From contig OZ024745.1 of the NCBI GenBank assembly GCA_964016885.1, forward strand, positions 55,428,001-55,492,000: a DNA stretch of 64,000 nt. Direction: 5' to 3'. The stretch's first letter is position 1; each line of letters begins with the position of its first letter. This document shows, in pieces, positions 5,701 to 57,247 of this stretch. A program made the translations under genes and the position numbers. The notes beneath the pieces are model-generated. The model searched no databases. It was not told where the DNA came from and worked only from the letters and a program-made list of their open reading frames with translations. This DNA is from Eledone cirrhosa. Its lineage: Eukaryota.

Positions 5701-6190
5701 GGCTTTTGCACCCCCCGCTCCTATCAGATACTCCCACACAATCCCAGCGTGCTTCTAAGATGCCATTTCAATCACCTATTAACAGTAAAGGGCGAGACGT
5801 AAGCAGAAAGTTTTCCAGGCGCCTAAAGAAGTCCGGCCGACCGGCCCCAGTAGGGGCGTAGACGGCCACCAGTCTAAAGGCACCACCTTCGCTATTGCTC
5901 ACGTCCAGGACCACCAACTTTCCGTCAGGATCCCGGAAGATTGACCTTACCTCGAGATCCAGACATTTCCTAAACAGCACAGCCACTCCACCTCCCATTC
6001 CCGGCCGACTAACAGATGCAAAGATCTGATAATCGTCGAAAATCGGCGCCAGTGCGCGTGTGTCGGAAATTCTGGTCTCGCTGATGGCAATTACATCCAT
6101 TCCTAGTGACCTGAGGTCGTTGAGCAAGTGACCTTGCTTCCAGGGCGACCCCAGGCCACGAACATTTAAACTTCCTACTCTTATGGCCAT
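2771..6190 (-). pseudogene. Tx1 ORF2 (APE endonuclease + reverse transcriptase + zf-RVT-like tail), 1139 codons with one in-frame stop
   Basis: ORFs 5768..6190 and 2771..5737 are in the same frame, separated only by TGA at 5768-5770 (GD*N for GDWN). Motifs SLNVRG, SETR, VYAP, YSDH, KSPGLDG, FRPITLLN, LDQSKAFDRV, RQGCPLS, YADD, CPRC..ETVLHALVQC. Confidence 0.95.
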
Positions 6191-6219
6191 GCTGGCAGGA
6201 TGAATGGGAGAGGAAAGGT

Positions 6220-8124
6220 TTACTTACCTTCCGGGGTCTTGTGAAGGTCGGGTGGTTCGACCTCCATGGTTTGTGGGGTTTCTTTTGGGAACCCCTTTAA
6301 TAGTCTTGACGTGGGTTTTACGTTCGGGGTTCCCACATCCCGAGGAAAGCTCCTTCGAATTTCTTTGTATGAAGCGAGCGACATTCGCATCAGAAGCAAA
6401 TTATCTGGTACGCGAAATGTGCTCGCTTCAAATGTTTCCCCGTCTTTTTCGATGTTTGTGCTTCGTGCTACATGGGCCATCAATTCCTTGTTGGCCCTTC
6501 TGGCAAGCACGAAGTTTTTAATGTTTTGTTGCTCGGGTTTTATTTGTTCGTGTGATTGTGGTGGTGATAGCTTTGTTAGTGTTGTTTCTATTGTGTCTGC
6601 GTTTGTTGTGGGTGGGGTGTCTGTAGTTTCTGATGTTTGTGTGTCTATTTGTTCTTGTGTCTGTTTAGCTTGTTTGCGTTTGGGGGATTTTGGTGGTTGT
6701 GTTGGTGATGCTGTGGGGAAAATGTTTGTGTGGGTGGTGTGTGTATTTTTTTTGTGGGGGTGTTTGTGCTTTGTGGATTTCTTTTTTTTTTGTGTTTTGT
6801 TTTTTGTATTTTGGGGGACTTTGGTTTTCCCTCATCTTCACTGCTGGAGGATGAGGGGTCTGTGGCTGTGAGCGTGTTTGTGTCTGAGTGAGTGTTTATG
6901 TTCTTGTTCGTGTGTGTATTTTTGGGGGGGAGGGGGAATGGGAGAGCTTTCCTCGTTTCCCCCCTGGGTGTGCAATTTTGGTGGTTCCATTGTTGACGGT
7001 GTTGCTGGTGGTCCTTGTCCCGGCGTCGCCAGCAGTGGAATCTTTCGACCCCTTGCGCTTTTCGGCAGTTGAGGGCAGAAGGCTCGCAAGTGTGTCGTTT
7101 CCCCACAAAGGAAACAATGCGGCCTTTTGCCCTCAGTCATTATATGCAACACCCTCCCGTTTTGGAGGCGGATGTGGTCCGGGATTGCTTTTACGTTTTC
7201 GGGTCTGATTTGGAGCAGTATCTCCAGATCAACCCCGGACCAGTCGTCCCTGGCAGTTCTCGTTGCCTCTACCGGGACTGTATCCGTTCCTTCCACGATT
7301 ACGCAACCCAGGAGCCACCACATATCAAGTCCTGGTGGAATCCTGGGAATGCGCACACGTGCTATTCGTTTTCCCATGTGGGAGGGGTACATTATAACCT
7401 TGCTGGTTTTGCAAGGGGTCATTGAATGCTTCACAGCGAGGGCTTCAGACTTGAACAGCACCGAAACGGTGCCGTATTGCCTGCCCCTCTCTATGAAGTC
7501 TGTGTCCTCTCTGATGTATTTCAGTGCGGCTTCTATATCAGCTTGGGCGATTATCGCTGCCCTCTTTGTCTCTACTGAGATGCATCTGAAATGCACCGTT
7601 CTTTTTTCCACTGCCTCAATGGCTTCTGCCGGGACAGTTAAGTTTGCCCAGGTCTGCTCTTGATTTATGATTTTCCAGGCCTGGGCCAACTTTTCCTCTG
7701 TGTTGGTTAAGTCGATGCTGTAGCATGGTCTCCTTTTAGCCGCTGCCACAGCAGCGAAGGTGTTCTTGTTGGTGTTGTCACTGTTGTTGTTCTTGTTGGT
7801 GTTGCTGCTGCTATTGCTGTTGTTCCCTGTGTCGTGGTTACCCTCTGTGCTGTTGGCCTTGTTGGTGCTGTTGCTGTCGCTACTATTACTCTCTGTGCTG
7901 TTCGTTTTGTTGGTGCTCTCGCTATTACCACCTTCTGCGCTGTTCGGCTTGTTGGTGTTGGTGTTGTCGCTGTTACCACCTTCCGCGCCGCTCGGCCCGT
8001 TGGTGCTGGCACTGTCGCTGCTCACATTCGTGCTGGTGGCGCTCCTCGCCTCACCTCTCCTCTCAACGCTCAAGTCGCCGTTGCACGACAGCAGACCCGC
8101 CTCTAGGGGGCGTGGCTCCGCCAT
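6220..8124 (-). pseudogene. Tx1 ORF1 (gag-like, zinc knuckle), broken by two frameshifts
   Basis: 428-aa ORF with N/S/T-rich N-terminus and CFLCGETTHLRAFC knuckle. It continues in other frames (6645..7106, 6220..6510), with shifts near homopolymer runs at ~6925 and ~6720. Confidence 0.85.
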
Positions 8125-8354
8125 GTTTTTTTGAGAAAAAAATTATTATTTTTTTTTTTTCAAAATAAAGTTCAAATATTTGGGCCAAAAGGCCCAAATA
8201 TTATGAGTTATTCCTTCACAGGATACAAATTAATGTCTTATAATGCTTCAGCGGTACAAAAAATAAACAATTCTCTACAATTAATCCTCAAAAAATTGCT
8301 TACTCACGGAGCTTCAAAAAACGTACATCCACTTTCGTCAATAATAATAATAAT

Positions 8355-8444
8355 AATTGTTTCTACTTTAGACACAATGCCAGCAATTATCCCAGTGTAT
8401 TACTGGTACTTTATTTTATCGACCCCGTAAGGATGAAAGGCAAA
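8355..8444 (-). mobile_element. tRNA-derived SINE, 3' half
   Basis: GCCTTTCATCCTTACGGGGTCGATAAAATAAAGTACCAG core and ...GTAGAAACAATTATT tail, matching full copies elsewhere in the window. Confidence 0.9.
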
Positions 8445-8469
8445 TAATAATAATAATAACAATAATAAT

Positions 8470-11400
8470 GGTTTCTTTATTGGCTACAAGGGCTGACATG
8501 AAGAAAAACATTAGAGACTGTACAGAACAGTACAGGACGATACAAAGTGGGTTTTGGTCGTGTAAACAGGTTATAACAAAATCGGGCTAGAAATCAAAAG
8601 AATTCAAACAATAAAAATTCCCCAAGAAGGGGGAAACCTCACAGGGTCACTCGTGGTGAAAACCACAGAAAAGACCACGGCCACTCTGACCACCAGGGCA
8701 AGCGCCCTCTCTCACTTTTCCATTCTTCAGTCTACAGGCGCATACTCAGAGCGAACCCGTTCACTCGGACCAGACTCATCACTTTCACCCACCTTTCAAC
8801 AAACTTTGTATAAGACAGCACTTGACTCTCCACCCTGATTTTCCTCTTAAAGTGAACCTTGAAAAAGTTAATCAGGGATTGGCGGGAGAGGAAAGTGTCC
8901 GTCTTCAACCCTTTCAACCTTGTCCACCAAACAATCTCTTTCACCATGGCCACCAGGCAGATGAAAACTACCTGCCCTCCTTCCTCTTTAAAAGAGGATG
9001 GCGGGGCTACATGCAACAGCAGCTGTTCGACATAGCTCCACAAGTCAGCAATCCTCGGGAACTGAACGCGTGCGTGTAGGACAGTTTCGTTGCCCTGCTC
9101 GTATCTCGGACAGGTTGGGTTGACAACACCTCTGTGCCTGTAGAGCTTGTCTCGAACCGGCAACGCTCTCCGGTAGCACTGCCAGGCTAGGGATTTCTGG
9201 AAGTTGTCCATAGGCCCCGGTCTGAAAGTTCTCTTGAAGAGAGCGAACAGCTGACCGTCTTCGACGCCCAGGATCTCCCCGAGAACGCGTCGCTCTTTCC
9301 CTCCACTAGCCCGCTATAGAACGCCGAGATGGACGTTCCACCAATACTAGTGGACAGCTGGTAGAGGGCGATGAGCGCTTGGAGACATTCCAGCTTCCAA
9401 GCGCTATCCCTCGATCTTTTCCTGATCCAGGACTGCAAATCCGTCAAGGAGACGAGTTGGGGAAAAGCGCGTCTGGTAAACAGCGACCACACCTGTTCGC
9501 TGTCAAGGAAGCACCAGTGATGTGGCAGCCTCAGCGCATGATTGCGTATCTTCAGCCACGGCATGCCTAGTCCTCCACGCAATGGGTGTTGACAGTAAAT
9601 GGATCGTCTCACCATGGGAGCTCGTCCCTTCCACAAAAAGCGGAAGAGAAGGCGCTCCATTTTGATCAGAGTTGTGCGGGGACAAGGTACGACGGTCAGG
9701 CGGTAGCAGATAACGGACGCGATGTACGCATGTACGCATGTACGCGATGTACACATTCGCCACCTGCGCCCGACCTTTCAGAGGCAGCCCTATTCTCGGC
9801 CCATTTCTGGGAGAGAGAGGCCACCCTGCACGGCACCTCGCTCCAGTTTTTCTCCATCTGGAGGTCAAGACCGAACCAAACCCCGAGCAGCGCCACACAA
9901 CACTGTCGGACGGCATGGAGTTGCCTCTCCAGTTGCCTAGTTGCAAGCCCACCGACTTTTCCTGGTTTATCTTTACTCCTGTTGTCACTTCGTATTTCTT
10001 GAGAGCGGTACCGAGTATCTGGACGTGTTTCGTGCTCGACAGAACCACAGTGACGTCGTCGGCGTAAACCGACACGGGTCTCCCGCATACCAGTTCGCGT
10101 GGGATCCCACTCATCGTCTCCAATTTGTGCAGTAACTGCTCGAGGGCCAGTACGTACAAGAGGGACGTGAGGGGGAAATCCTGGAGGATGGGGCGCATGA
10201 AGCTGAAAGGCTGCGACAGGTAACCATTCACCCTCACAATCGAGCAGATGTCGCTGTGCATCGCAGCGATCCAGCCCCTAAAAACGATCCCGAAGCCGGC
10301 CGCCTCGGGGATCGCAGCCAGGTACCGATGGTCGACCCTATCAAATGCTTTAGATTGATCCAAGTTGATCAGGGCCGCGCCTGTACTAGGTTACTTAAAC
10401 ACCCGCTCTATGATGTATCGCATGAGATGGAAGTTGTCGTGGATAGATCTGTCCAGAATGGCGCATATCTGCGCGTCTCCAACCAGACAACCGACGACAA
10501 GCGCCAGTCTCTTTGCTAACACCTTGGCGAAAATCTAAAACTGCGTTTAGCAGATTTATGGTCCGGAAGTTGTCTATAACGTCCCTCTTGTTCGGATCTT
10601 TTATCAGCAGCGCCACCGCTCCCCGGCTCACACAACTGCGAATTCTCCCGTTCTGCTGCCAGTTGCAGTAGACATCTGCCGAGAGGTCGCCGAACATGTC
10701 TGGCATATATGCATAAAGCTCGTAGGGCGGACCATCCACACCTGGCGATTTACCCCTCGTGCAGTCAGACATCGCTTCCCGTATTTCACCTGCCTTTATC
10801 GGCTTTCGCCACACTGCGCTGCGGTTGTCGAGATCCACGGCAGTCCGACGAGGTATGCACCGAAGTCCACACTCCGCTTCGGCCCGCCGCCGCTCCCGAA
10901 CAATTGAGCAAAGTGCTCTTGAAAAGCCGCACACATCTGTTCGGGTTCGAGCAACATGCGCCCGTTTTCATTAGGCAAAGACCGAATTGTAGACGTGTTG
11001 CCACGTCGCGACTCCACCACCCGGGCCCATTGAACGGCTTTCGTCCCCTCGTGGCTTAGAGCACGCGCTCTAGCTCTGACAACGCAGCCTTCATGTTTTG
11101 CGTTGAGGAATTGGTCCAGTGCCAATCTCGCCGCCAGCACGATGGTTGCGATGACTGTCCTAAATGCCTCTTCTAGCTTTCTAACTAACTCCCACTCTAC
11201 TCTATTTTCCTCTATCACTACTACTTTGCCAAACCTTATCGATTCTTTCCTAATAGCCCTTGTCAGGGTAAGCCACCACCTGTTGTTGAGGAAATCACCA
11301 GCCAACGTACGCTTAACTAATTCGCTAATCCGGTCTCTGTAAGCGTTGCGCACCGGGAATGATACGTTCAACTTCCAGTAGCCGGGCCCTTGCCTATGAA

Positions 11401-13970
11401 GTCTATCTAAGTCAACTTCACAGATCACAAATGTGTGGTCCGTGTAGTCAACTACTTTAAACTGTGGACAACCTACACTAGCCTTATCTGTTTCGCTACA
11501 GAATACTCTATCTAAATACAATCTGGATGACCCAATGCGGTTTGCTCATATCCACATTGGTTCATTCGGATAATCCATTCTATACCTGTCAGACAGTTCA
11601 AAACGTCTGAGCAGGTTGTTGAGGCTTTTACACCCTCCTGCACTGTCTACTAGCCCCACATAATCCCAGTGTGCATCTACGATACCGTTCTAGTCGCCCA
11701 CTAACAGTAAAGAGCGGGACGTTCCAAGAAAGGTCTCTAGACGTCTGAAGAAACCTGGCCGTTCTGCCCCTGTTGGCGCGTGACGGCTACTAGCCTGAAA
11801 GCATTGCCTTCGCTGCCGGTCACGTCCAGCACCACCGACTAACCTTCTGGGTCCAGGAAGATGGCCCATATGGCGAGATCCAAGCCTCTCTGAAAAAGCA
11901 CAGCAACTCCTCCCCCCGATCCTGGACGACTGGGAGATCCGTTTACATCGTTCGTAGCCGCCGAAGATCGGTACGAAGACTCATGCTTCGTAGATTGCGG
12001 TCTCGCTGATGACCACCATATCTATGTTTAGTGACCTGAGGTTTCGAGCATGTGGCACTGCTTCCATGACGACCCCAGTCCACACGAATTTATGCTGCCT
12101 AATCTGAGTAAGGTCATGTTGAAAAGGAGTGGAAAAAGATGGGAAAGTCCACTTACCTCACTTCTTGTGGAGGAAAGATGGTTTCTTCGTCCTTCTCACG
12201 GTTTGTGCCCCCCCCCCCCCTCCGTAAGGATGTCTTTATAAATCCTTCTGGAGAGTGTTTGTCGGAAGTTTCCGATGTCCTTGTGGAATTTTAATATTAG
12301 TGTCGTATACGTTTCCTGTGTGATGCGAGTGATTTGTATGTGTGTGTGTGGGGGGGGGGGGTGAATTTGTTGGGGTGTTGTATAGTATTTTTCTGTGATG
12401 ATTCTGTTGTGTTGGATGTAGTATAATAATTGGTTGTTCAAATTTAATGCTGTGTAGTGTGTATCGTTTTGGTTGCTTAGTTTTGTTTGCCCTTGTTGTG
12501 GGGTTGTTTCTGTTTGGCTTGTTGGTGATTTTTGTGGTGTTGGTGATGGTGGTGATGGTGTTGGTGTTTGTGGTGATGGGGCTGTCTTAACTTCTTTGTT
12601 AGCTTGTTTGTTTGTTTCGCCTTGCATTTTGTTTTTGGAGGGCGAAGGAAGGGGATTTTTTCTTTTTTGATTTCTTTTTTTTCTTTTTTCCTGATAGTTT
12701 CCCACTCCTCCTCGTCGTCACAACTGTCTCCAGTTGCGATAGGTCGGGGAGTGGAAAATCCTCTACGGGCGTTCGTTTTGGTTGTGGCGTGGTGGATGGT
12801 GGAGGCGCTGGTGCTAATTCTGGCGCGGTGGGTGGTGCTACAGTTGCTTCTGTTGTTGCTGCTACAGTTGTTGCTGCCATTTCTGATGCTGGTTTTGATG
12901 CTGGTTTTGATGCTTGCTGTGGGTTCCAAAGAATACGCCCACGTCTGACGTGGGTTTTTTGAGCCCACACATGTCCCAAAGCTTTTTGTATCTGGAACTC
13001 GGATGATCGTTCAACTCGGCACGTTTTAATAGTTATCATCCGATATCACACTGTGCATAGGCGACGATGCTCCATGGTATTAGATTTGAGGCTGTCCCTG
13101 TAACCATGTTTTTTTACCATTCGCTTGGCTTCATTCAATTCTTCCTGGCTTACCTCAACCGTTTCATTTGTGTTTGTAGCTTTAGCAAATGACATATTTG
13201 GTTTTACGCTAGTGTTGATATGGTTGTTATTATTCTTATTATTGATGTTGTTGTTGTTGTTGTTATTTTTGTTATTATTATTTTTTTAGTTTCAGTTGTG
13301 TTTTATTCAGTGGCGTTCGGCGTGGAAGAGTCGAATTTTGGAGAATCCATTTCGATATCACGAGAAAATAATTTATTTTTTGTTTCAGTTGTTGCTGTGG
13401 TGGTGGTGGTGGCGGTGGTATCAGTGGTGCTGGTTGTTCTTTTTGTCATAGTGGTGGTGGGGATGGCGGCTTTAATACCTGTAGACATTTGTAATGGCGG
13501 GAAATCCATGTCTGCATGTAACAAATGTAAATAATTGCCACTGCTATTACATATATTTTCAGTGTTGGCATTTTTTTCTTTTATATGTATTTTGGTTGTC
13601 GCTATTATTGTTGTAGTTGGTGTGATAATTTTTTTTTAATTAGTGTTCTCAGTGTTGTTATCTCTGTTCACGTTGTTTGTGGTGGTGTTTCTTGTATGAA
13701 TTTCTGTAGCCCTACTCTAAACTTTTAAGCCGTTGTCACACGACAGCAGACCTATTGCTGGGGGCGTGGTTCAGCCATGTTTTTTTGTTTTTTTTTTTTA
13801 AGTAAAATGTTCAAATATTATACTTTCACAAAGGTCCAAATATTATACTTTCCCCTCTCAGGGCAAAAACCAAGGGCTTATATCCTTTACACAACAAGAC
13901 AAATTTAAATACAAATAATTATAATTAAAGCGACTTACTGGGAGCGAGCTAAAAGACGTCGGAACAGACC
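8470..13970 (-). mobile_element. Tx1-clade LINE copy 2, decayed, with an internal deletion in ORF1
   Basis: ORF2 fragments 8732..12117 are homologous to copy 1 (DQSKAFDRV, YADD, GKSPGVDG). ORF1 starts MAEPRP like copy 1. Same 3' end; (AAT)n flanks. Confidence 0.93.
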
Positions 13971-14171: not shown

Positions 14172-14193
14172 AAATAATAGTAATAATAATAAT

Positions 14194-16750
14194 GCTTTCT
14201 TTATTAACCACAAGGGTTGGCATAAAGTATAACATTACGGACAGCACAGGACAGTACAGGATGGTACAAATGTGTATTTCTGTGTGTAAAAAACAAAAAC
14301 AAAATTACATGTATGAAAATAAAAGGATGTAACAAGAACAATATTACCCAATGGTGTGGGTGTGGGGTGACTTCCGAGGATCACTCCTGGAGAATGCACA
14401 CAAAAAAGCCACGTTCACCCTGACGCTAGGGCAAGCGCCCTCTTCCAGTTTTCCTCGTACGATACTACAGACACACGCTCAGGGCAGACCCATTCACACG
14501 GGCCATTCTTACCTGTCTCACCCGCCTTTCACCAAACTGGCTGGAAGGCAGCTCTTCCCTCTCCAACCTAATTTTATTTTTTATGTGGAACCTGAAAAGT
14601 TTAAAGAGGGCATCACGGAACAATAAACTACCGGTGTTCAAACCTTTCAAACGAGTCTACTATACGACCTCTTTTACCATGGCCACCAGGCAGATAAAAC
14701 CTTCCTGCCCCTCCTGGTTAAAGGAGGGTGTTGGGGGGCAATCTTCACTATGGATTCAGCTGATAACCGGATACGTCCTACACGTGACAGCATATGTTTG
14801 ACATAAACCCTCAAGTCAGCGATGCTCGGACACTGGACGAGTGTGTGCAGGACTGTTTCAACGCCCTGCGTGTATCTCGGACAGGCCCGTCTAACGGCAC
14901 TTACATGCCTATAGAGTTTATCCAGAACTGGCAAATCTCCTCGGAGGCTCTGCCAGGCCAGGAAAGTCTGGAAGTCGTCCATTGGCCCCGGCCAGAAAGT
15001 TATCCCGAAAAGATTGACTAGTTTATTTTCGTCGACGCCCAGAGTCTCCCCAAGGACATCGTCGCACTTTCCCTCCATCAACCCTCTATAGAACGCGAAG
15101 GTGGAGTTTCCACCATTCGCATCGCCCGACATGTCGAGGGCTGTGAGCACCTGGAGACATTCCAGGCTCCAAGCGCTCCCTCTCGTTCTTCGCTTGACCC
15201 AGAACTGTATCTTGATATCCAAACTTGTACAGAACAACACAGCCTCTCCCCACCCCCAGATCCGGGACTGCTTGGAGACGTATACACCTCATAGCCGCCG
15301 GAAATGGGTGCAAATGCACGTGCCCCGGAAATTCTGGTCTCACTGAGAGCCACGACATATATGTTTAGCGATCGTTGAGCAGGTGAGCATGCTTCGAAGA
15401 CGACCCCAGGCCACATGCATTTATGCTTCCTATCCTGAGAGAAGCCATGTTGGCTAAGATAGGAGGAAAACAAGTGAGAGGTGAAAAGTGAAGATTTTAC
15501 CTGTGGCTCTTTTTCAGGAAGGTGTGGATGATCTATCACTCCGATCAGTGGTGGATTTCACCACGAGAATGTCAGAGTATATTCTTTTAATGAGGCTTGC
15601 TCGATAGTCTCCAACTGACGCGGGGAACATTTTCTTTAGTGTTGTGTAATTCCTTTGAGTGATTTCAATTATTTTTATATATGTGGGAGGTGCAATTTTG
15701 GTTGTCTGCATGTTGTGCTTTCCTGCGATGTTGTTGAGGTGTTGGATGAAATTTAAAAGAATTGTGTTGTGCGCGTCTATAGCTGTGTATTGTGTCTGCT
15801 TTGGGGATGTTGGTGCTACCTTCGTTTGCTGTGGTGTTGCTGAAGGTGACGATGGGGTCGATGATAATGGTGTCGGTGATCGTGGTAGCGGCGGTGGCGT
15901 TTTCATTGGTGGTGGTGATGGTGTAAGTGGTTGTGGGGGGGGGGATGTTGATGGTGATGGCGGTGGGGTCATTGACCTTTTAATTTTTTTTTCTCCTCTT
16001 TTTTTTTGCCGCGATGGTTTTCCAACCTTCAGCGTCACCACACTCCTTTTCCGATTTAGCGATATTGTGAAGGGGCATGCTCTCCATTGGTTTTGTTGGC
16101 GCTGATGGTGGTGGAGGACATGGTGCATTTTTCGTTGGTGCTAGGGTTTTTTCTGCCATTGCGGCCTTGGGTGGCTTGGCCACTCTAGTCGTGGGGCTCG
16201 GCGTAGGGAGAAAGGGAGAGCGCGTACCCGCCTTGATGAGTTTGGGGCAGACGTCCTTAAGGTACGCCTTGTCATCACACACTTGACACCTAGGGTTTCT
16301 ACATTCAACAGACACTGCTACATGGTTGCATCGTCCAGGTCGATCACATTTGGGAATGGCCTCTATGCTCTCATGGTCTGCTTGGATGATTAGCTCCATC
16401 TCCGAGCCTGACAAGTTTTCCTGTCTTATCTGCATGACGTCTAGGACTGCTGTTCACTCCTCTATGTCATTGAGGATAGCTGCCAACTGCCAAGCGATCT
16501 CCACTGAGGGCGGAACCTGGGTAACTCGGACCTTCGCGAATCTCTGGCTGCAGTTGGTGGGCAGCATCACTCTTTCGTCGATGTGGAGTTGCGTAATGGA
16601 GTGTACTCTGCCTTCTTCGGGTGTAGCGAAGAGAACATCCACTGTGCCAAACTTGCTATGTAGGTTTTCTGTGCCCAGACGTCACACATAGCCCTTTGAA
16701 CCTACGACTCGGTCGCCCATTCCACCCGGCGCGATTTCAGTCGAATTGTG
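14194..16750 (-). mobile_element. Tx1-clade LINE copy 3, 5'-truncated, lacking most of the endonuclease and all of the RT
   Basis: ORF1 remnant with decayed knuckle (CQVCDDKAYLKDVC). ORF2 N-terminus (LSETRIS) is fused at ~15205 to the C-terminus (FWVKRR..CPRY..ETVLH). Same 3' end; 5' boundary approximate. Confidence 0.88.
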
Positions 16751-18812
16751 CGGTAGTAGACAGAACACAAACGCCGGTTGGCAACTTCTTAGAAATGATA
16801 AATAAAGAAATGCGTTTTACATGCGAAGGCCTCGCAGAACCTTTCCACAACAACAACACACCGTTAAAAATATTTTCCAGTTAGAATCGAACAAACAATG
16901 TCGAGATTAAGAAATGTAGCCATTCCAATGTATACATAAATATTAAATAGATTTACTCTTTCGGAAACTAATTACTGGAAGAAAACCTAAAATTATAAAA
17001 AAAAAGAATTACTTATAAAATCTAATGAACAAATATATGACATACTTTAGACGCTAATAATTATAGTTTAGAAATTCATTTAAAATGAGTAGTTATTGGA
17101 TTTATTATGCTGCACGTCAATTTCCATCAGCCAGACGTTTGATGGATGTTACTTCATAGGTTTCCTGGAAAACGTGCTCCTACTAACATTCTATATAACG
17201 TGCCACTTTCTTACGGAGAGAGTAACGGCTTTTTGAAGAATTTGCCACTATTTCTAGCATATTGTTGGAACATGTGTGTGTGTGTGTCTGTGTGTACATA
17301 TATATAGAGTCCTTTAACATTATTTTTCTTGTTTACTCCGATGTCAATCTGATTGATTAACATTATGGGTAAACACATTGCACCCATCACAATGCCATTG
17401 TGATACAAACATTGTGTATTAGAAACGGTATTTCTCTTTTTATGAAATGATAATCGCGTTTTCCCATTTCAAAGATATCAATCAAGAGCATCTTGGATTC
17501 CTGGACATATCGCATATATTAGTTTTATATTAATATAAAAGGCAATTTTCTATACAGTTTCATGTCTGTGTTATGATAATTGACAATTAATAATTTACAA
17601 TTAATGATAATAGAATGTAGTGTAAAGTGTATCAATTTTCATCTAAATACCTAAATTTATATTCAAAATATACTTCAATAATTATTTCTTCGATTGAATT
17701 CAATCAAAATATTGTAATTGAATTTTCTATAAAAAATACCTTTAGGTAATATATAAACAGAACAGTGTCAATGTCCATGTGATCGATAAGTATTATGCAT
17801 ATTTATTATATGGCATATCATTATTGGTAAAATGTGAGTAGCTAAATTATAAGCTGGATGTTCAATATAAAAGCATTTCACATCCCCAATAGAACACAAT
17901 AAAATAAATATGTATTGGATGATCTTTGATATCATGGTTAACACGGAGTAAAGCCGACAATCAATGTCCTCGACATATGTGATAAATGAAATGAATTTAT
18001 GTTTAGCTACTGGTACTGGTGCGTTTTCACTAATTCCCGCTAAAGTCTGAAAACCGGAGATAACCAAACCAATATAGTTTACCCTCCAAAGCTTTCTTAA
18101 ACGCATTTATACCTCCGGTGATGGAATGCAAGGCATAATATAATCTATCCATCAGAGTACATGCTAGAAATTACGGGCCTATCCTTCTATATGCAGGTGG
18201 ATATTCTCGCATATCCATCTAAATCCTATTATAATTCACATTTGACATGGCCGGTAGAAATTGCTTCTATCCTATTTTTTCATTGCCACCCAACCCATTA
18301 GATACCCAGCTTGCAACAGCAGATACAGTAGCCCGATTGCAGGAGATGGTTTTTACCTCTTTGTTATTTTAGGTTTCTCTCCCAACTCGCTTGCTGATGT
18401 AAGCCATGGTCTTAACTTAGTTGATTATCGACTGATAATAAAAGAAATTAACAGATGTTTTCATTGCTGGAAACTGCGTAGTACGGGCGTATTCAAAATG
18501 TGATTACTTTGACGGTTTTCTGTTAAACAGTCGAACTAATGGCAACATGGAATTTGTGTACAATTGCCGTAAAACATTTATTGTTGAAGATTTGACTGTA
18601 AATAAATGATTTCTTGCGCCCCTGTTTATTGGGTATTTATCTGCAATTCAATCAATACTGTTGACTACATTACTATTATATATATATATATACATAATAA
18701 AACACACACACGCATGCATACATTAACACAAACACAAGCATACACACATACACACACATATACACCCACACACGCACACACACACACACACATAAATATA
18801 TATATATATATA

Positions 18813-19291
18813 CATTATGAAGAGAGAAGAAACATTTTAGATATAATTAGTAATAAAATGTATCATACCTAAACTGCTCCTAGATTCCTCGACTACGTAG
18901 TTTCGTGGCATAAACAAAAACAATATATCATAAAGATATAGAGTCTTTGCGAGGTCTGCCGACTTATCAAGAGGATACCTCATTTTACTAGCTTCAAGAA
19001 CGCGTCTACACGACGTGAGAAAGAATCCCAAAAGGCGGAGGGGGAGATAGTCACGCGATATAACGGTCGAGAAACAGAGCTAAGCCTCCTATAACCCCGA
19101 AGAAAATACCACGGAGGCGGAGGGGGTATTTATATCGAAGCCGTAGAAGAGGTGGTGAAGGAGGCGAGAAGTATGAGTAATGGCAGCTTTCCAGCAGTCA
19201 TCACACTTCAAAGATTACTCAACCAGAGGGAGTTATTAACAATATATTTAGAAACACACATGTGTGTCCGCATGTATCTGTGTGTTTCTAA

Positions 19292-19298
<7 letters not shown>
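18813..19298 (-). mobile_element. Hammerhead-bearing non-coding repeat, family A, partial copy with short terminal inversion
   Basis: Highly similar to 21819-22755 and 50137-50690. Bounded by (TA)n; inverted end at ~19241-19298. Confidence 0.85.
18886..18975 (-). ncRNA. Type I hammerhead ribozyme motif, family A (U3-A8 core)
   Basis: TCCTC-TTGATAA-stem II-GAAA-CTACGTAG-TC-GAGGA on the minus strand. Confidence 0.72.
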
Positions 19299-19366
<68 letters not shown>

Positions 19367-21737: not shown

Positions 21738-21821
<84 letters not shown>

Positions 21822-21890
21822 TATGAAGAGAGAAGAAACATTTAGATATAATTAGTAATAAAATGTATCATACCTAAACTGTTCCTAAAT

Positions 21891-21978
21891 TCCTCGACTA
21901 CGTAGTTTCGCGGCATAAACAAAAACAATATATCAAAGATATAGAGTCCTTGCGAGGTCTGCCGACTTATCAAGAGGA
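21891..21978 (-). ncRNA. Type I hammerhead ribozyme motif, family A
   Basis: Reverse complement of 22428-22515. Confidence 0.78.
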
Positions 21979-22427
21979 TACCTCATTTTACTAGTCTCAA
22001 GAACGCGTCTACACGACGTGAGAAAGAATCCCAAAAGGCGGAGGGGGAGATAGTCACGCGATATAACGGTCGAGAAACAGAGCTAAGCCTCTTATAGCCA
22101 CGAAGAAAATGCATTCATGTATATATGTGTGTGTCCGCATGTATCTGTGTGTTTCTAAATATATTAATAACTCCCTCTGGTCGAGCAATCTTTGAAGTGT
22201 GGGGACAACTGGAAAGCTTCCATTACTCATACTTCTCGCCTTCTTCACTACCTCTTCTACGGCCTCGATACGAATACCCCCTCCGCCTCCGTGGTATTTT
22301 CTTCGTGGCTATAAGAGGCTTAGCTCTGTTTCTCGACCGTTATATCGCGTGACTATCTCCCCCTCCGCCTTTTGGGATTCTTTCTCACGTCGTGTAGACG
22401 CGTTCTTGAGACTAGTAAAATGAGGTA

Positions 22428-22515
22428 TCCTCTTGATAAGTCGGCAGACCTCGCAAGGACTCTATATCTTTGATATATTGTTTTTGTTTATGCCGCGAAA
22501 CTACGTAGTCGAGGA
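22428..22515 (+). ncRNA. Type I hammerhead ribozyme motif, family A (U3-A8 core, long stem II)
   Basis: Stem I TCCTC/GAGGA, core TTGATAA (22433-39), stem II G(T)CGGCA/TGCCGC, GAAA (22497-500), palindromic stem III CTACGTAG, GUC cleavage triplet. Confidence 0.8.
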
Positions 22516-22766
22516 ATTTAGGAACAGTTTAGGTATGATACATTTTATTACTAATTATATCTAAATGTTTCTTCTCTCTTCATAATGTATTTTTAACTCT
22601 GATACTGGTTCAGTCTGGTTCAAACTGAATTGGTCTGTCCCAGTCATTCATTGAGCAACATTGGTGAAGTTGGCACCCTTAACTCACAGTTGGGTACGGA
22701 TGCATTCATGTATATATGTGTGTGTCCGCATGTATCTGTGTGTTTCTAAATATATATATATATATA

Positions 22767-22985
22767 TAGGAACCAGTAAGACCCCGACGGCTGAGCTCAA
22801 GCCGTTTCGACGGCTAATTCGACGGCTAATTCTTTTTTTTTTAGTCCAGAATTAGCCGTCGAAACGGCTACAGCTCAGCCGTCGGGGTCTTACTGGTTCC
22901 TATTAGCCACTCTACTACCCTAAGTATTGAGTACTTTGGTGCTTTATGGTCCACCTGGTTCCTTACCACATTTCCTTCGTTATAT
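22767..22985. repeat. Fold-back repeat containing the 3' half of a hammerhead (family F)
   Basis: Arms ~22767-22820 and ~22849-22902 are reverse complements. Stem II GACGGCTAATTC/GAATTAGCCGTC, then GAAA-CGGCT..AGCCG-TC; no CTGANGA. Confidence 0.7.
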
Positions 22986-24761: not shown

Positions 24762-26672
24762 CATTTACCCTTGCAGTGTAACACGCACACATACACTACT
24801 TTTCATTTGCACACTTTTTCTCTCGTATCCATGCTCGCATCCTTACACACTCTCCCTATCTCTTGCGCTCTTTCTCTCTCACTCTGTAAATATATATGCA
24901 TATATATATATGCATATATTATATAATCATATATAAATGCTTGTACTTAACGTGTAGACAAATACACTTGTAGACGATATTAAATAGATTAATAAGTCAT
25001 GCGTATATTTATGGAAATGGAATTATTTATGTAGCTAGGAATTTGTGTTAATTTAACAAGAAGGATGGCTGATCTACGTCCACAGGAAAATATTTAGTGA
25101 AGTAAAATTGAATGATATATCTTTCCAATTACATTAATCGCTTGAAATGCCGAACTTGTATTATAAAGAAAAGATAATAATGTTTGAAAATCATACAAGC
25201 ACGGATTACACGAAACTCTTCACTAAATCCTCTCCGATTATGTCAATCTCAATATGTTTCTATGTTTGACTTACAATTTGTAACATCTAAGTTTCAGTGC
25301 AAACCAATTCGTAAGAATTTACCATCAATCTCATCAACCAATATTCTTACGCTGTAGTCCATGCAGTTCAACCAATTACTAAGATTTGTTTTCATTAATC
25401 TACTAATCACTAATTTGTCCTTAGTACAAGCACTAATATTTATTATTGAAATCCCACTTTAAACAACAAATTGATTAAATATAAAAGCCATAAAACAGTT
25501 TTCATTAACAAGAGAACATTCCCACTGTTACATCAATCCACATAGTAATTCGATCCATAAATTTTAAAAAAAGCAATAACTACTTCATGAACATCATTGA
25601 TTTTGTTTATTTTTATTTTTTATGGATTACTGGAAGAAACCTATCTGCTATTACATTTTTTTATCAGTTCAAAAATAATTAAGGAACATGTTCGACGAAG
25701 CTTTTATCATACAATTCATTAGACGATTGTTTGTATCCACTAATAGTAAACTAGACCCATTCGATGGTGCTAATTCGGGCGGCAAAACAGGTTTTGATAT
25801 TTACATATTTTAGCATATATGATTGTATTAGAGTTTACAAATATGATTTGGTAATGAGTATTCATTCAAATCAGGTGTTGCTAAGGAATGATATTCTTCA
25901 TTCACTCATGCCTCATTATTAGTGATCAAATATTAATGGACAATTCCTTTTATATGCCAGTTATATGTGCAGAAAAAATTGCAAATACCCGTATATATGG
26001 ATACAGGCATGGTTATTAAATTATAGATAAATATCATATTTAGAGAAATGAAGAATTTTAATATATACCTGTGTGCAAATTTAAAAAGGATAAAAGTTAC
26101 TGATTAAATGAAGTAATATATCTGGTAAATGACAGAGAAGAGAATTTGAAATATGAAATACATAGTAGTACATGTTTTATTTGCTGATATATTGATTTTC
26201 TTTTTGGACGGTATGTTTTTGTAGTTTTAAACTATGTTATGCACGTAAACTTACATAGTATTAAAACTTGTTATCAGGTAAAACCCAAATTAATTACATT
26301 TCGATCACGAATCTCACACAAGCTTGCAATTATTTAATTCGTTTCAACCTTCTCGAACATATTTCTGTGTATAAAAATATTTAATGATATACAGCGAACA
26401 AAGCTATGTTTTAACGACTTCACGGAGCCTGAAATATACGAATATCTGCAGATCCCCTACCAATGAAAAGCGCCAACCTCTATGATAGCACATTGGCCAA
26501 ACTCTCAAACTCTGTGTTTAGGAGTGTTATAAACATGAAGTGTTTTAAAGGTTATCTCGTCTTTCTTCATCTACGTTACTACTACTCCTCGGCTGGCATA
26601 CCTGGAAATTTTCCCATTGTACTGCCAGTTAGATTTCGTAAACGGAATCCTTTTGTACTGCCATTATATTAC

Positions 26673-27145
26673 GGCGGTGGTGGTGGATTGGCAGTATAGG
26701 TAGAGAGTCGGACGCCATGCTTTCCAGCATAGTTACGTCCCTTTGCGATCTGAGTTCAAATCCCCCCGAGGTTAACTTTGCCTTTCATCATTACGGGGTC
26801 GATAGAATAAAGTACCAGTAATGTATTGGAAAATTGCTGGCCTTGTGCCAAATGTAGAAACAATTATATTACGGCGGTGGTAGATTGGCAGTATCGGTAG
26901 AGGATCGGACGTTATGCTTTGACGCATAGAGATACGGCCCTTGCCATTCTGAATTCAAATCCCGCCGAGGTCAACTTTGTATTTCATCCTTACGGGGTCG
27001 ATAAAATAAAGTACCAGTAATGCACTAGTTAATTGCTGGCCTTGTGCCATAAAGTAGAAACAATTATATTAGTGCGGTGGATTGGCTGTATCGGTAGAGG
27101 GACGGACGCTATGCATTAACGCATAACGCATCAACAATTATATTA
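26673..27145 (+). mobile_element. Head-to-tail array of tRNA-derived SINEs (26673-26870, 26873-27070, internally deleted 27073-27145)
   Basis: Two full units with A box, B box (GTTCAAATCC / ATTCAAATCC), Deu/Nin-like core and AGAAACAATTATATT tail; the third unit keeps only head and tail. Confidence 0.92.
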
Positions 27146-27210: not shown

Positions 27211-29175
27211 TATGATCTACCATCACCTCCACACAAACAACTTGTTACCGGACGAACAGAAAGGATGCCGAAAGAAGTCACGTGGTACAAAGGGCCAGTT
27301 ACTTATTGATAAGATGGTAATGAGGAATTGCAAGAGGAGACACACTGGTCTTGCCATGGGATGGATAGACTACAAAAAGGCATTTGACATGGTGCCTCAT
27401 TCTTGGATCACCAAAAGCCTGGAGATCTTCAAGGTGGCAGATAACATCAGACAGTTGTTGGTCAAAAGTATGAAGTCCTAGGAAACAGAGTTAACATCAA
27501 CTGGAGAATCCTTGGGAAGCGTGAAGATCAAGAGAGGTATCGTCCAGGGTGATAGTCTGTCCCCTCTGTTGTTTGTCCTTGCCCTGATGCCCCTGACCAG
27601 TGTACTGCGAAAAGTGAGAGCAGGATACAGGTTGGGAAAGGGAGGGCTTACCATCAATCACCTCCTCTTCATGGACGATCTTAAGCTCTTCGGGAAGAGT
27701 GAGAAGGAGTTGGATGTGCTTTCCGTATTTTCAGCAATGATATATGTATCCAATTTGGTATTAGTAAGTGTGGAGTCATTGTGATGAGGAGGTGTAAGTT
27801 GAGCAGAAGTAACGGAATTCAGATACCAACAGGTGAGATGATAAAAGAAATTGACTCTGATGAAGGATACAAGTATTTGGGCGTTCTGGAGGCTGATGAC
27901 ATCAAGAACAAAAAAATGAAGGAATTGATAAGAACTGAATACCTTCGGAGAGTAAGGAGCGTATTAAAGTCACATCTGAACAGTAGGAATGCCATAAGTG
28001 CAGTAAATTCCCGAGCTGTGTCTGTTGTTAGGTACAGTGCGGGAATTCTGAGATGGAATGTTGCTGAACAAAAAGAAATGGATAGGAAGAATAGGAAGCT
28101 ATTGACTATCTACAATATGTTCCACAAGAGGAGTGATGTCGATAGACTCTACTTAAGGAGATCTGAGGGTGGAAGAGGTCTTATCAGCATAGAGGACTGT
28201 GTTCAGATGGAGAAAAACAACCTACACAAATACGTGACTGATAGTAAGGAGCCAATGCTCAGAACTGTACTGAAGGAGGGGACAATAGGCCAGGGGATGT
28301 CCAAGGAGGAAATAACATCAAGGAGAAAGAGCAGCCTTCAGGAAAAATCCCTTCATAGTACCTTCTTTGAGAAAACTGAATTTAGAGATTCACAGACATG
28401 GAACTGGTTGAAAAGAGGAGACCTTAAAAAGGCTACAGAAGGAATGTTTATGGCTGCGCAGGAGCAGGCCCTCAAAGCGAAGTGGTTGAAACACCACATT
28501 TACAAGGAGGAGGCTAGCCCACTGTGCAGGATCTGTGGAGAGAGAGAGGAGACTGTGGCTCACATTGTATCCGAGTGTAAACACCTAGCCCAGACTCACT
28601 ATTAGGGCTGGAGACATGATGTGATGGGCAGGGTGATCCACTGGCACCTATGCAAAGTAAACAATTTACCACATTCTGAGAAGTGGTATGAGCATAAGCC
28701 AGAGGCGGTGATAGAAAACGATCAGGTGAAGGTGCTGTGGGATTTTAGGATACAGACGGACAAGAAACTGGAACACAATAGACCTGAACTGGTGGTTTTG
28801 GACAAAGAAAAAAGATCGTGCCTGATTGTGGATGTGGCCTGCCCATTCGACACGAGAGTGCAAGAGAAGGGGAGGAGAAAATTAACCGATACCAGGACTT
28901 AAAGTGGGAGGTAAAAAGGATTTGGAACTGCTATGAAGTCAAAGTGATCCCGATTGTCATAGGCGCACTAGGGACTATCTCAAAAAGTTTCCAGGGATGG
29001 TTAAAGAAAATTGGCCCCTTCACGCTTTTTGGAACGCTTCAAAAGGCATGTTTGCTGGGAACAGCAAGAACCATCCGATACGTCCTGAATATCTGAGGCT
29101 GCAGGTAGTGGCTTGATATTCATCTCAACAAACTTTCCAGTTAACTAACATCAATGACTGAGACTCAAGGAGTAA
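27211..29175 (+). mobile_element. 5'-truncated R4/Dong-type non-LTR retrotransposon (RT + CCHC + restriction-like endonuclease), disrupted
   Basis: [68 protein letters not shown]. Stops at 27479 and 28603 plus frameshifts. (TAA)n on both sides. Confidence 0.92.
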
Positions 29176-30199: not shown

Positions 30200-32030
30200 G
30201 ACATAAATTAACCGCGTATTGCTCGTACTATCCGTTATGGTATAACGTGGGACTGTAATACAGGAACGTTTTATGCAATTTGTGCTAACAAGCCGATGTT
30301 GCCTCAGATTTTTGTTTAAGATGTGATCATTGGCGTAGAGTATTTTCAGGGCTTCAGTGGCGTAAACATCGCATGGTCTTTTATTTTCGTTATTCGATCT
30401 AGCTTTACTACGATCTCCCAGTTTAACCTATATTGAGTGTGGTTGTCTTTTAGACTCCAGATAAGAGCTGAAAGTGACGTCATATTCGTTGTTAAAGGGT
30501 TAAGAAAAGAATGGGTGTGCATGTAAAGACGCTGCTTAAATCTATTGGCGGTTAACCCTATGTAGGCTCTAGTAGACGTGGGTGTTTCGACCTTACATTT
30601 GTAGACAATGCTAATGGAGAGGCATTTCCCGGATAGAGGGCAGTCAACTTGATGCCTACAATTACAGTTAGTACTAGCTACAGGGTTGCACGTGTTCCTA
30701 CGGCTAGGTAATTTAGCTAAATTTGAAACAGTGATGTTATATGCAATGTTAGGAGTCGTAGAGTAAGATATTTTAATGGTATTTCTATTAAAAATATTAT
30801 TATATTTATGTGCTGAGGTGAAATGCTTCTTAATAAAGGAGAGAAAGATCTAATGGAGTGGCCACCTCCATATTATATGGTGGGTTATACCATATAATAC
30901 GTTACTTCGGGATCTATTTTTCCTTGGTTTATGCTCATACTTAGTATATGTTACCTCATCGACAAATCCACTCAGAGTAGGAGCTTCATTGTAATATGTG
31001 GAATGGTCGGTGCAAATATTCTCGTTTGTAGATAGACCGGAAAGCCTCTAAGAAACGTTTCTTACCAGCTTCTTGGTAATATTGGCAGGATGGTTAGAAT
31101 GCTTACTGATGTACTTAAGCGTATCATTCGGATTTCTATACGGGTCGTGCAAACCATTCGACAATTTGAGGGTAACGGAGCTAATTAACGACCAAGACTT
31201 TGGCCTTTAAAGAAGGCTGTGACTTCATTTTTAAACCTGTCGCAAGCGCGTGGACAGCACCTTGTCATGGTCAAAAGACGGTCATCGTGGTACAAACCAC
31301 CGCCCATATTGGAGAATTCTTCCTTGATAGAGAAAACAAGGAAAAGGCCGATAAGATCTGTAACCTCCGCCGAATCGCTGGCGCCCATACTCGCGTCGAA
31401 TGGGGTACTATTATATTTTTTTTATCCTAATAGAGTCGTCGAAATTAATCACCGACTTACGGGCATTGAGGCTGACATTAACTTCGAAATCCTTAACAAC
31501 CGTGAGCGTTTTAGCGAAATTGATAGCTCTAAGAATAAGTGGTAAATTGATGCAGGAGTAGTAGTTATTGATGTCGAATTGGATAAAACGGCAATGTTCC
31601 TTGTTGCATATGCCATTGAACCAATCAATCACAGCGAAAGAATTATTCCACACTAAAAGAGGGGCGAAGCTTCTAATTTCAGGCATAATTCTATCTAAAG
31701 ACCTTTTACTAAGTCTACCTAAATCAGACTTCGTACAGTTAATTAGCCGAATAAAGGGGTTGTTGTCGAAATTGGATTTGTGATCCTTCATGGAAAACTG
31801 GGGAGAAATAGGGTCCAGAGGTTCAGTCTGGTCCTGGATGTTGAGTTCAGAAGTGATTTTAAACCCAGCATCGTTGATGTCATTAATGCCACTCCGATTG
31901 GTTTTCCGGTAATCCTTAGTACAAGATTATGTAGCAGCTGATGGTAAGTATTGCGGTCCACTTGATATACATTACCAGTTTTGTCGGGATGGACGTGAGC
32001 GGCATTAGAATCCTTAATAGAATTCGTTCT
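30200..32030 (-). mobile_element. Decayed Penelope-like element (RT + GIY-YIG endonuclease), Naiad-like
   Basis: FIQFDINNYYSCI, MGASDSAEVTDLIGLFL, GLYHDD (YRDD-like). Hand translation at ~30500-30670 gives CNCRHQVDCPLSGKCLSISIVYKC..RAYIGLTANRFKQR. Confidence 0.88.
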
Positions 32031-34649: not shown

Positions 34650-35251
34650 TGATACTTGTGTAATATATATATATATATATATATATACATGGATTGTGTG
34701 TGTATGTAGAAGTGCATTCGATTTTGTTCATACATATTCTATGTTGTGAATCTTTTGTTCATAGGGAGACCAACAGATTAGTATTCACATCGAGGGAGAT
34801 CAAATGTGAATAGAAAGCTCTTGGTACATGGAATTTCTGGAAATATAATTTGTAAGGATTCATGAACAAAATCCTGCGGACCATACCAAATTATATTTTA
34901 TAAAATCGCTCTAGCGTATGTTGAATTGATATTTACGTATGCAATTCATATTATTTGGGATCTTAAGACTTACAACCAACTTACAAAAGTGTTTAATACT
35001 GTTTCAGCACAGCATCATTTACTCACACACACTGTACACACACTTGCACATGCACACTCACACACACATACATACACATACACACACATACACACACACA
35101 CTCACACGCACACACACACATGCAATACACATAATGTTAGCTTACACGTCCAGAAACAGGAGGTCTTGGTTTGACTCCCATATACGAGAGAACCCATCTT
35201 TTCCCGTTCAACGTGTACATAAACCCCATTATTAGACTATATTATTTACTA

Positions 35252-35606
35252 GCATAGTTACGTCCCTTTATGATCTGAGTTCAAAATCCGCCGAGGTTAA
35301 CTTTGTCTTTCATCCTTACGGGTTGCTTAAAATAAAGTACCAGTAATACACTGTGATAATTGCTGGCCTTGTGCCTAAAGTAGAAACAATTATTTAGTCT
35401 AAAGGGCGGTAGATTAGCAGTATCGGTAGAGGGTCGGACACCATGCTTTGAAGCATAGCGTTACCGTCCTTTATGATCTGAGTTCAAATCCCGCCGAGGT
35501 TAACTTTGCCTTTCATTCTTACGGAGTCGAAAAATTAAAGTACCAGTAATGCACTGGGATAATTGCTGGCCTTGTGCCAAAAGTAGAAACAATTATTTAG
35601 TCTAAA
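35252..35606 (+). mobile_element. Tandem pair of tRNA-derived SINEs (5'-truncated copy plus full copy)
   Basis: B box, core and tail occur twice; both copies end CAATTATTTAGTCTAAA. Confidence 0.9.
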
Positions 35607-35689
35607 ATGTTACAGCGTAGCTTCTATTTTTATTTAATATATTTATATGTATATACAGAGAGAGAGAAAGATTGTGTGTGTGTGTATGT

Positions 35690-41921: not shown

Positions 41922-41964
41922 ATGGAGAACTAACTGTTGTGGAACTACTTATATATATATATAT

Positions 41965-42148
41965 AATTGTTTCTACTTTTGGAACAAGGCCAGCAATTAC
42001 CCAGTGCATTACTGGTACTTTATTTTATCGACCCCGTAAGGATGAAAGGCAAAGTTAACCTCAGCGAGATTTGAACTCAGAATGGCAAGGACCGACCGTA
42101 ACTCTATGCCTCAAAGCATGGCGTCCGACCCTCTACCGATATTGCCAA
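41965..42148 (-). mobile_element. tRNA-derived SINE
   Basis: Full head, core and tail match to the other copies. Confidence 0.9.
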
Positions 42149-50102: not shown

Positions 50103-50136
<34 letters not shown>

Positions 50137-50142
<6 letters not shown>

Positions 50143-50687
50143 GAAACACACAGATACATGCGGACACACACATATATACATGAATGCATCCGCACCCAAC
50201 TGTGAGTTAAGGGTGCCAACTTCACCGATGTTGCTCAATGAATGACTGGGACAGACCAATTCAGTTTGAACCAGACTGAACCAGTATCAGAGTTAAAAAT
50301 ACATTATGAAGAGAGAAGAAACATTTAGATATAATTAGTAATAAAATGTATCATACCTAAACTGCTCCTAAATTCCTCGACTACGTAGTTTCGTGGCATA
50401 AACAAAAACAATATATCAAAGATATAGAGTCCTTGCGAGGTCTGCCAACTTATCAAGAGGATACCTCATTTTACTAGTCTCAAGAACGCGTCTACACGAC
50501 GTGAGAAAGAATCCCAAAAGGCGGAGGGGGAGATAGTCACGCGATATAACGGTCGAGAAACAGAGCTAAGCCTCTTATAACCACGAAGAAAATACCACGG
50601 AGGCGGAGGGGGTATTCATATCGAGGCCGTAGAAGAGGTAGTGAAGAAGGCGAGAAGTATGAGTAATGGAAGCTTTCCAGTTGTCCC

Positions 50688-50690
<3 letters not shown>
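50137..50690 (-). mobile_element. Family A hammerhead repeat, near-complete unit
   Basis: Near-identical reverse complement of ~22198-22755; (TA)n on both sides. Confidence 0.88.
50374..50461 (-). ncRNA. Type I hammerhead motif, family A
   Basis: As 22428-22515, with a compensatory stem II change CGGCA/TGCCG to TGGCA/TGCCA. Confidence 0.8.
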
Positions 50691-50771
<81 letters not shown>

Positions 50772-57235: not shown

Positions 57236-57247
57236 AATAGTAATAAT

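Follow-up and report, generated by a model that had tools for sequence, protein, structure and literature searches.

A 591-nt hammerhead repeat of Eledone cirrhosa, likely a retrozyme copied repeatedly from two fixed sites into (TA)n

The 591-nt element and its hammerhead

The stretch of DNA analysed here (the window) comprises 64,000 nucleotides of the Eledone cirrhosa genome and contains three insertions of a 591-nt element, two of them two-armed and one single-armed (Table 1). The right arm of the focal insertion, 22109-22755, repeats its own ends with a period of 591 and an exact terminal overlap of 56 nt, in agreement with the first-pass annotation of this DNA, and we number the unit from this arm (phase 1 is 22109, phase 402 is 22510). 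The left arm is joined to it head to head, the join linking a minus arm of phase 482->188 to a plus arm of phase 1->56, and the two arms are 100% identical over 295 nt, with the variants 201C and 387G common to both. The annotation had counted these arms among several copies lying on differing arcs of one circle. Related copies are indeed present (the match to the focal unit is 94.0% for 18810-19260, 100% for 21816-22110 and 98.7% for 50134-50691, each of them on the minus strand with (TA)n on both sides), but 21816-22110 and 22109-22755 are the arms of a single insertion, and the copy at 18.8 kb, which had been taken to read through the junction, does not do so: it is collinear with 22590->22146 and inverts at 19260/19261 into a 39-nt second arm. 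The copy at 50 kb crosses the unit boundary defined by the focal copy. In every copy in the window the 3' end lies at phase 482 or at phase 56-58.

Table 1 Features of the 591-nt element in the window and of related elements elsewhere in the genome (window positions unless a locus is given)
Feature	Position	Strand	Remarks
Two-armed head-to-head insertion, 591-nt element	21816..22755	.	inside (TA)n; arms overlap by 2 nt
Left arm, 295 nt	21816..22110	-	phase 482->188; outer (3') end is start site A
Second hammerhead copy, in left arm	about 21891-21978	-	position mapped via phase numbers
Right arm, 647 nt (591-nt turn plus 56 nt)	22109..22755	+	outer (3') end is site B, phase 56
Type I hammerhead	22428..22515	+	motif scan: stem I TCCTC/GAGGA, core TTGATAA, bulged stem II with long loop, GAAA, palindrome ACTACGTAGT
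Hammerhead cleavage site, predicted	22510..22511	+	copies with a 5' end exactly here are enriched genome-wide
AU-rich long hairpin, predicted	22520..22572	+	just upstream of site A; RNAfold
Start site A (..CATAATGTAT)	22581..22590	+	80 nt 3' of cut; putative RT start, primed from (TA)n
165-nt 'tail' between sites A and B	22591..22755	+	at one end only of two-armed insertions
Hairpin, predicted	22681..22747	+	just upstream of site B; RNAfold
Start site B (..CTAAATATAT)	22746..22755	+	245 nt 3' of cut
Second insertion, older subfamily, two-armed	18810..19299	.	minus arm 18810-19260 (482->38) and plus arm 19261-19299 (20->58)
Third insertion, young subfamily, single arm	50134..50691	-	B end, phase 56->90, 5'-truncated
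Coding Neptune-like element, 4,979-nt unit	L061:2273-7914 (G000:C1:145868500-145877500)		U3-A8 minimal hammerhead, 68-nt tail
485-nt family, examples	L197:3833-4617; L289 (G000:C1:149204500-149211500)		others exist

The remaining description of the unit was accurate: it carries one hammerhead, holds no credible ORF (the longest ATG-started frame in the circularised unit encodes 75 aa, and no ORF starts 3' of site B) and sits in (TA)n. Its GC content is below 50% (G or C at 228 of 534 scored positions), and the hammerhead (plus) strand folds more stably than 40 dinucleotide shuffles of it (z=-5.0, compared with z=-1.3 for the minus strand). The hammerhead is of type I, with one per unit; its core reads UUGAUAA (U3-A8) and not CUGAUGA, and Rfam reports no hammerhead at the gathering score in the window and none at E<=10 in 21800-22800. 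Replacement of the usual C3-G8 pair by U3-A8 is known from Schistosoma Penelope-like elements (PLEs; PMC4209133; here and below, papers are cited from their available portions). A GUC at 22508-22510 places the predicted cut after C22510 (phase 402). The palindrome in helix/loop III is predicted to form an intermolecular duplex at -14.3 kcal/mol, so that helix III may pair as a dimer and the ribozyme probably cleaves in that form, as is known for dimer-acting metazoan hammerheads (PMC4209133, PMC7229834). A short-loop hammerhead pattern gave 3 matches, all of them deletion variants of the 591-nt family.

Other repeats were noticed in the window. A MITE-like, short near-perfect inverted repeat with a T-run at its centre (22771-22902) follows directly after the TA flank of the focal insertion. 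Minus-strand LINE-like elements, assigned to family by eye only, occupy 2774-8142, 8430-12194, 14173-15207 and 57208-62496, and the part at 2774-5767 has a 998-aa RT-like ORF with endonuclease-like and zinc-knuckle-like ORFs upstream. An abundant dispersed repeat of about 190 nt, SINE-like and often in tandem pairs, is found at 26663-27128, 35251-35607, 41946-42149, 43036-43242 and 51468-51666, and shows very high depth in DNA-like sequencing runs. Inspection by eye also suggests degenerate fragments of GIY-YIG/PLE-like ORFs and the remnant of an RT-like ORF at 30349-31926 and 27703-28602.

Ends, arms and variants across the genome

The 19-mer of the hammerhead has 7,681 exact matches in the 3.0-Gb genome, compared with 0 for a control. 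Ends at site A (phase 482) adjoining TA number 2,609, and ends at site B 678, the latter in the phase-58 form only and thus not comparable with the A total, since the search pattern missed the phase-56 form. We mapped 158 loci, mostly on contig C1, of which 30-odd were found by BLAST and the rest by the hammerhead pattern, the A end (40) or the phase-58 B end (40). Together with 25 matches at the cut site (below), they make up the sample studied from a family of at least 2,609 insertions. The 3' end falls at site A (phase 478-488) or site B (phase 53-64), 165 nt apart, in 232 of 247 non-edge arms, and 227 of these 232 run into TA-rich sequence, while the 242 sampled 5' ends are scattered round the unit. 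The copies are therefore defined by two fixed starts and scattered stops, and the free circular permutation of arcs proposed in the annotation, like random permutation of the copies in general, has to be rejected. The tandem multimers sought as a check on that proposal were found among the fetched loci, from which they were sampled rather than counted genome-wide: 113 of the 232 A/B arms are longer than one unit, and head-to-tail arms reach 2,907 nt (about five turns) of unit sequence only. The terminal overlap varies with arm length, and there are no LTRs.

The two ends are combined in a regular manner. From 84 adjacent head-to-head arm pairs, 71 could be classed at both ends (one of them a duplicated locus, L232/L233), and each consists of one A and one B arm (71/71, with 0 A/A and 0 B/B); in the other 13, one end is lost at the edge of the locus, has been rearranged or misses A by a few bases. 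The arms mostly overlap by 0-8 nt at their join. In one case (L005:2175-2400), a B-end arm is joined directly to another repeat, apparently with its own hammerhead, by template switch or nested insertion, and at L105-L110 whole insertions are locally duplicated.

How many templates contributed to each insertion can be judged from 49 informative sites that are polymorphic within the family. Units are discordant in 42 of 5,611 cells (0.75%) within an arm and in 34 of 4,458 cells (0.76%) between the two arms of an insertion, compared with 320,525 of 1,607,346 (19.9%) between insertions. The 51 young insertions whose coverage overlaps carry 33 haplotype sets. Of the variant events in the young insertions, 91 are shared and 87 turn-private, and a single site among 19,674 cells is mixed (the indel-prone phases 9-31, 54-65, 360-365 and 508-523 and the duplicate L233 were left out of the variant analysis). 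Only 2 turn-private variants recur between insertions. At L111, a private variant set is present in 7-8 of 7-8 turns and in both arms; a few insertions have discordant arms, among them L006, which differs at 3 sites. The common haplotype of the units in an insertion shows that they derive from a single monomer by repeated copying, and only by way of such a monomer can a new variant come to stand in every unit. The simplest template for such copying would be a circle, for which the internal homogeneity of the multimers is better evidence than permutation. Tandem cDNA from circles has been proposed before (PMC7229834, PMC4209133, PMC7761336). A self-closing 621-nt contig in run X1 was rejected as an RNA circle, being explained by trace DNA; an unrelated dispersed repeat is there at far higher depth. 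In 113 insertions not chosen by hammerhead pattern, template-borne variants are absent from the 33 positions of the core, stem I and loop III (0/33) and occur at 90 of 501 others (p=0.003), which indicates purifying selection on the ribozyme.

A second retrozyme-like family, with a 485-nt unit, a C3-G8 hammerhead, a 10-nt palindrome and arms of up to 4,909 nt, has 2,154 first-look candidates. It too has two fixed ends, 82 and about 190 nt after the cut. At 35 loci there are 14 two-armed insertions, of which 11 follow the one-each rule, 1 is B/B and 2 show an end of another kind. The units within a multimer agree with one another, as at L289 (13/13). The two-site and single-template pattern is thus replicated and general in this genome, which does not hold for the A>G bias described below (A>G 7 and T>C 10 of 49 variants in the 485-nt family). 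A third hammerhead repeat, at L022:2050-2720, has a period of about 486 and the palindrome ACTGATCAGT, and ends in (TA)n about 88 nt past its cut.

Template, enzyme and proposed mechanism

Among the 38 distinct template-borne variants of the young subfamily, from which variants equal to the older subfamily's majority base were removed, 21 are A>G, 5 T>C, 5 C>T and 7 of other kinds, compared with 5 A>G and 11 T>C among the 87 turn-private variants (Fisher p=0.003). The base 5' of the A>G sites is U in 12 cases, A in 4, C in 4 and G in 1, with G depleted (p=0.04), a preference that matches that of ADAR. In the older subfamily, where the spectrum is only mildly skewed (A>G 21 and T>C 15 of 103), 12 of the 21 A>G sites recur (p=5e-6), compared with 3 of 17 variants of other types (difference p=0.02). 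The twelve recurrent sites lie at phases 88, 151, 168, 206, 234, 247, 348, 358, 423, 534, 560 and 578. Deaminase-domain genes (ADAR, ADAT and ADAD taken together) are present at four loci of the genome. On balance we lean towards A-to-I editing of the monomer, which would have become fixed as recurrent A>G changes. The signal may instead reflect selection on RNA structure, misincorporation bias of the RT or exchange between subfamilies, an alternative to be taken seriously in view of the 14 of 21 A>G sites lying in predicted A-U pairs, which would tolerate a change to G-U, of the absence of the bias from the 485-nt family, of a polarity set by majority base and not by outgroup, and of context tests that are marginal (p=0.04, 0.045). 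The surroundings of the A>G sites are no more paired than those of other A's (p=0.83). Tolerance of wobble pairs should, however, favour C>T equally, RT errors should leave turn-private A>G changes in greater number than the five seen, and the recurrence across subfamilies and the presence of deaminase-domain genes both speak for editing.

Cleavage of the template would be expected to leave its mark on the copies, and 3 of the 242 sampled 5' ends lie exactly on phase 403. Genome-wide, a pattern for 5' ends at the cut gave 25 matches, compared with 5 at one control six bases upstream; as 4 of the 25 belong to one amplified locus, 22 are independent (22 vs 5, p=0.0015; 20 vs 5 without the two that prompted the test). 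That locus (L248, L249, L256, L257) holds a very small two-armed insertion that ends at the cut site and has been multiplied inside an expanded (TA)n/TACG tract. Of the 22 copies, 17 end where the cut is first reached, 78-85 nt from A or 245-247 nt from B, and 5 run through the site once or twice before stopping there; in several insertions both arms stop at or near the cut. Judged from these ends, the hammerhead of the 591-nt family probably cleaves in vivo. The five later stops suggest that some templates were linear multimers, which fit them at least as well as circles do, or that the RT pauses at the ligation junction.

This raises the question of whether the template was linear throughout, the same element and enzyme operating on a cut monomer that is re-read by end-to-end jumping of the RT along one molecule, or on a multimeric transcript of a homogeneous parent array. 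Linear cut RNAs appear to be used at least sometimes, given the copies that end exactly at the cut, and uncut RNA is the main substrate of an Anolis PLE in vitro (PMC11167929). We nevertheless consider an exclusively linear template unlikely. Inheritance of linear multimers can neither regenerate length nor spread a new variant to every unit, and is difficult to reconcile with so many haplotype sets among the young insertions, a single mixed site and only two recurrent turn-private variants; jumping between different molecules would give mixed units, an argument that does not extend to jumping on one molecule.

A circular template would gain nothing from the homogeneity of the multimers if this had been acquired once the copies were in place, through gene conversion, slippage or unequal crossover, as in satellite DNA. 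Tandem repeats can homogenise, and some whole insertions (L105-L110) are duplicated locally; local amplification of retrozyme repeats has also been proposed (bioRxiv 10.64898/2026.07.22.740005). We regard this explanation as very improbable, since inverted arms are as homogeneous with one another as units within an arm (0.76% vs 0.75%), the 87 turn-private variants of the young insertions persist unconverted, the 5' ends are scattered with microhomology joins, and shared variants are strand-biased while private ones are not. Repeated copying of one monomer, most simply a circle, remains the preferred reading.

As to the enzyme, 5' truncation, an inverted arm, a one-ended tail and a (TA)n target together make the anatomy of the 591-nt family that of Penelope, and a PLE protein is known to cut both strands and extend them, the tail being delimited by two internal RT starts (PMC11167929). 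The genome contains 10,595 GIY-YIG candidates, and coding RT+GIY-YIG elements with the same two-site, (TA)n-targeted ends occur here. One of these, L061, codes for an RT+GIY-YIG protein of 937 aa, whose RT score of 28 falls slightly below the cut-off of 29.6 and whose nuclease is preceded by a C-x4-C-x2-C motif like that known from Neptune/Nematis (PMC8557442). Its repeat has a site A 82 nt after the cut and a second site 68 nt further, ending TTTCTAATATAT, with (TA)n flanks, and one-each arms of this type are found at L066, L070, L072 and L249, the last with both arms ending at their own cut site. Its alignment with the 591-nt unit scores 129, the same as shuffles (129+-8). L061 shows that the mechanism exists in this genome, but with no significant DNA similarity to the unit its enzyme is a candidate partner only.

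Linkage of the unit to an RT ORF, a check called for by the annotation, was found neither at the sampled arm junctions, where no arm continues into an ORF, nor by BLAST among 50 GIY-YIG loci (from 150 listed of the 10,595 candidates), none of which holds a coding element homologous to the unit; the only BLAST matches there were an unrelated neighbouring insertion in L056 and low-complexity sequence. Nor was any junction convincing as a chimera: at L122, TA separates the copy from a Neptune end, at L207 and L023 the PLE remnants close by are separate, and L005 joins another repeat. That the copies are only 5'-truncated pseudo-LTR (pLTR) pieces of one coding Penelope element, rather than an independent family, is hardly credible, even though the insertion anatomy equals that of coding PLEs (PMC8557442) and Xenopus retrozymes are homologous to pLTRs (bioRxiv 10.64898/2026.07.22.740005), because the longest arms hold unit sequence only, no sampled junction enters an ORF, no ORF starts past site B, and tblastn of six PLE ORFs against the unit gives nothing at E<0.1.

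Taken together, the annotation's central proposal, a young non-autonomous hammerhead retroelement copied from circular or multimeric RNA by a Penelope-type RT, is supported, and all tests run fit it, namely copy number, tandem arms, Penelope-type anatomy, single-haplotype multimers and the coding RT+GIY-YIG elements. It is likely, in our view, that each insertion represents one unit copied repeatedly from two fixed sites into (TA)n, and that the 591-nt repeat is a retrozyme whose circular RNA is read by a Penelope/Neptune-type RT. Tandem copies would be transcribed, and their U3-A8 hammerheads would cut, probably as dimers via the palindromic helix III, releasing monomers that a host ligase would close into circles (as can be supposed from PMC7229834). 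A Neptune-type RT/GIY-YIG protein would then cut both (TA)n strands, and the two sites and the one-each rule suggest that the two 3' ends would prime at different sites on one RNA, one at A, the other at B. Synthesis of each cDNA would cover a variable length, in many cases more than a full turn; the two would presumably then be joined at short microhomologies, giving a head-to-head insertion with the 165-nt tail at one end, or a single arm when only one cDNA is kept. In a minority of cases the template may be a linear RNA that has been cut, which would account for the 5' ends at the cleavage site. A-to-I edits of the monomer, a weaker step, would be fixed as recurrent A>G changes. In its most specific form, in which a dimer of the Penelope-type RT primes the cut (TA)n strands at two sites of one circular ribozyme RNA, the insertions are clonal prints that include heritable A-to-I edits, and the hammerhead cleaves in the germline, we offer the model tentatively.

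How PLEs build tandem and inverted insertions with a one-ended tail is stated as open in the available parts of PMC8557442 and PMC11167929, and so are circles as templates for tandem cDNA and the in vivo cleavage of PLE-type hammerheads in those of PMC7229834, PMC4209133 and PMC7761336. On both points the 591-nt family provides quantitative genomic evidence, and it names exact substrates, namely the 591-nt RNA, two start sites, a cut site, the (TA)n target and candidate coding RTs from the same genome. Should the A>G signal prove to be editing, a retroelement would be carrying such edits from RNA into germline DNA.

Comparison with known systems

In the sequence features compared, the 591-nt element works like a non-LTR retrozyme mobilised by Penelope/Neptune. 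With metazoan non-LTR retrozymes (PMC7229834; bioRxiv 10.64898/2026.07.22.740005) it shares non-coding tandem units with one type I hammerhead each, a GC content below 50%, thousands of copies, coexisting PLEs and the proposed reverse transcription of circles into tandem cDNA (PMC7229834). Its unit of 591 nt compares with a typical 150-450 (PMC7229834) and a range of 51-972 (bioRxiv 10.64898/2026.07.22.740005), and it differs in its U3-A8 core, long loop II, dispersed short (TA)n arrays and head-to-head arms. Circular RNA has been demonstrated in metazoan retrozymes (PMC7229834), whereas the 591-nt family is known from DNA copies alone. The available portions of the retrozyme papers make no mention of two fixed starts, of a one-each rule, of single-haplotype multimers or of cut-site scars.

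The EN+ PLEs Neptune/Nematis and Naiad (PMC8557442) have in common with the element 5' truncation, partial tandems, an inverted 5'-truncated arm, a one-ended tail and the (TA)n target. The 591-nt unit, however, has no RT + GIY-YIG ORF, and on this evidence is not an autonomous PLE; its tail is 165 nt, compared with 30-40 in theirs, and among the 50 loci it has no detectable homology to a coding family. Chlamys MRC1-type elements (PMC8557442) are likewise non-autonomous PLE derivatives with multicopy head-to-tail insertions, but resemble their autonomous partner at the 3' end, a homology not found for the 591-nt unit among the coding elements compared. Xenopus retrozymes, as mentioned, resemble pLTRs.

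A biochemical parallel is the Anolis Poseidon element PAc studied in vitro (PMC11167929), where both DNA strands are cut and extended and two internal RT starts bound the tail. The RT start lies about 85-92 nt past the hammerhead cut in PAc (111-118 minus 26) and 80 nt past it here. In PAc both strands use the same start sites, which are not homologous to the target, while here each arm uses a different site and the starts match the target by 3-6 nt of AT. For PAc, hammerhead cleavage is dispensable for insertion in vitro, and RNA ends at the cut site were looked for and not found, whereas cut-site ends are enriched in the DNA copies here.

The PLE hammerheads of Schistosoma Cercyon (PMC4209133) share with ours the U3-A8 covariation, G10.1-C11.1, a palindromic helix III and predicted cleavage as dimers, and circle-templated copying of more than one unit has been proposed for them; in the 591-nt family, by contrast, the motif lies in a non-coding tandem unit, is highly conserved among copies and has a 10-nt palindrome. 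Among cephalopods, 235 hammerhead matches are listed for the giant squid (PMC6962438). The available literature contains no description of the 591-nt family, of the one-each rule or of edited retrozyme copies, which repeat databases and some supplements may hold. The class to which the family belongs is already known, and within it the 591-nt family is a real, young, high-copy retrozyme variant.
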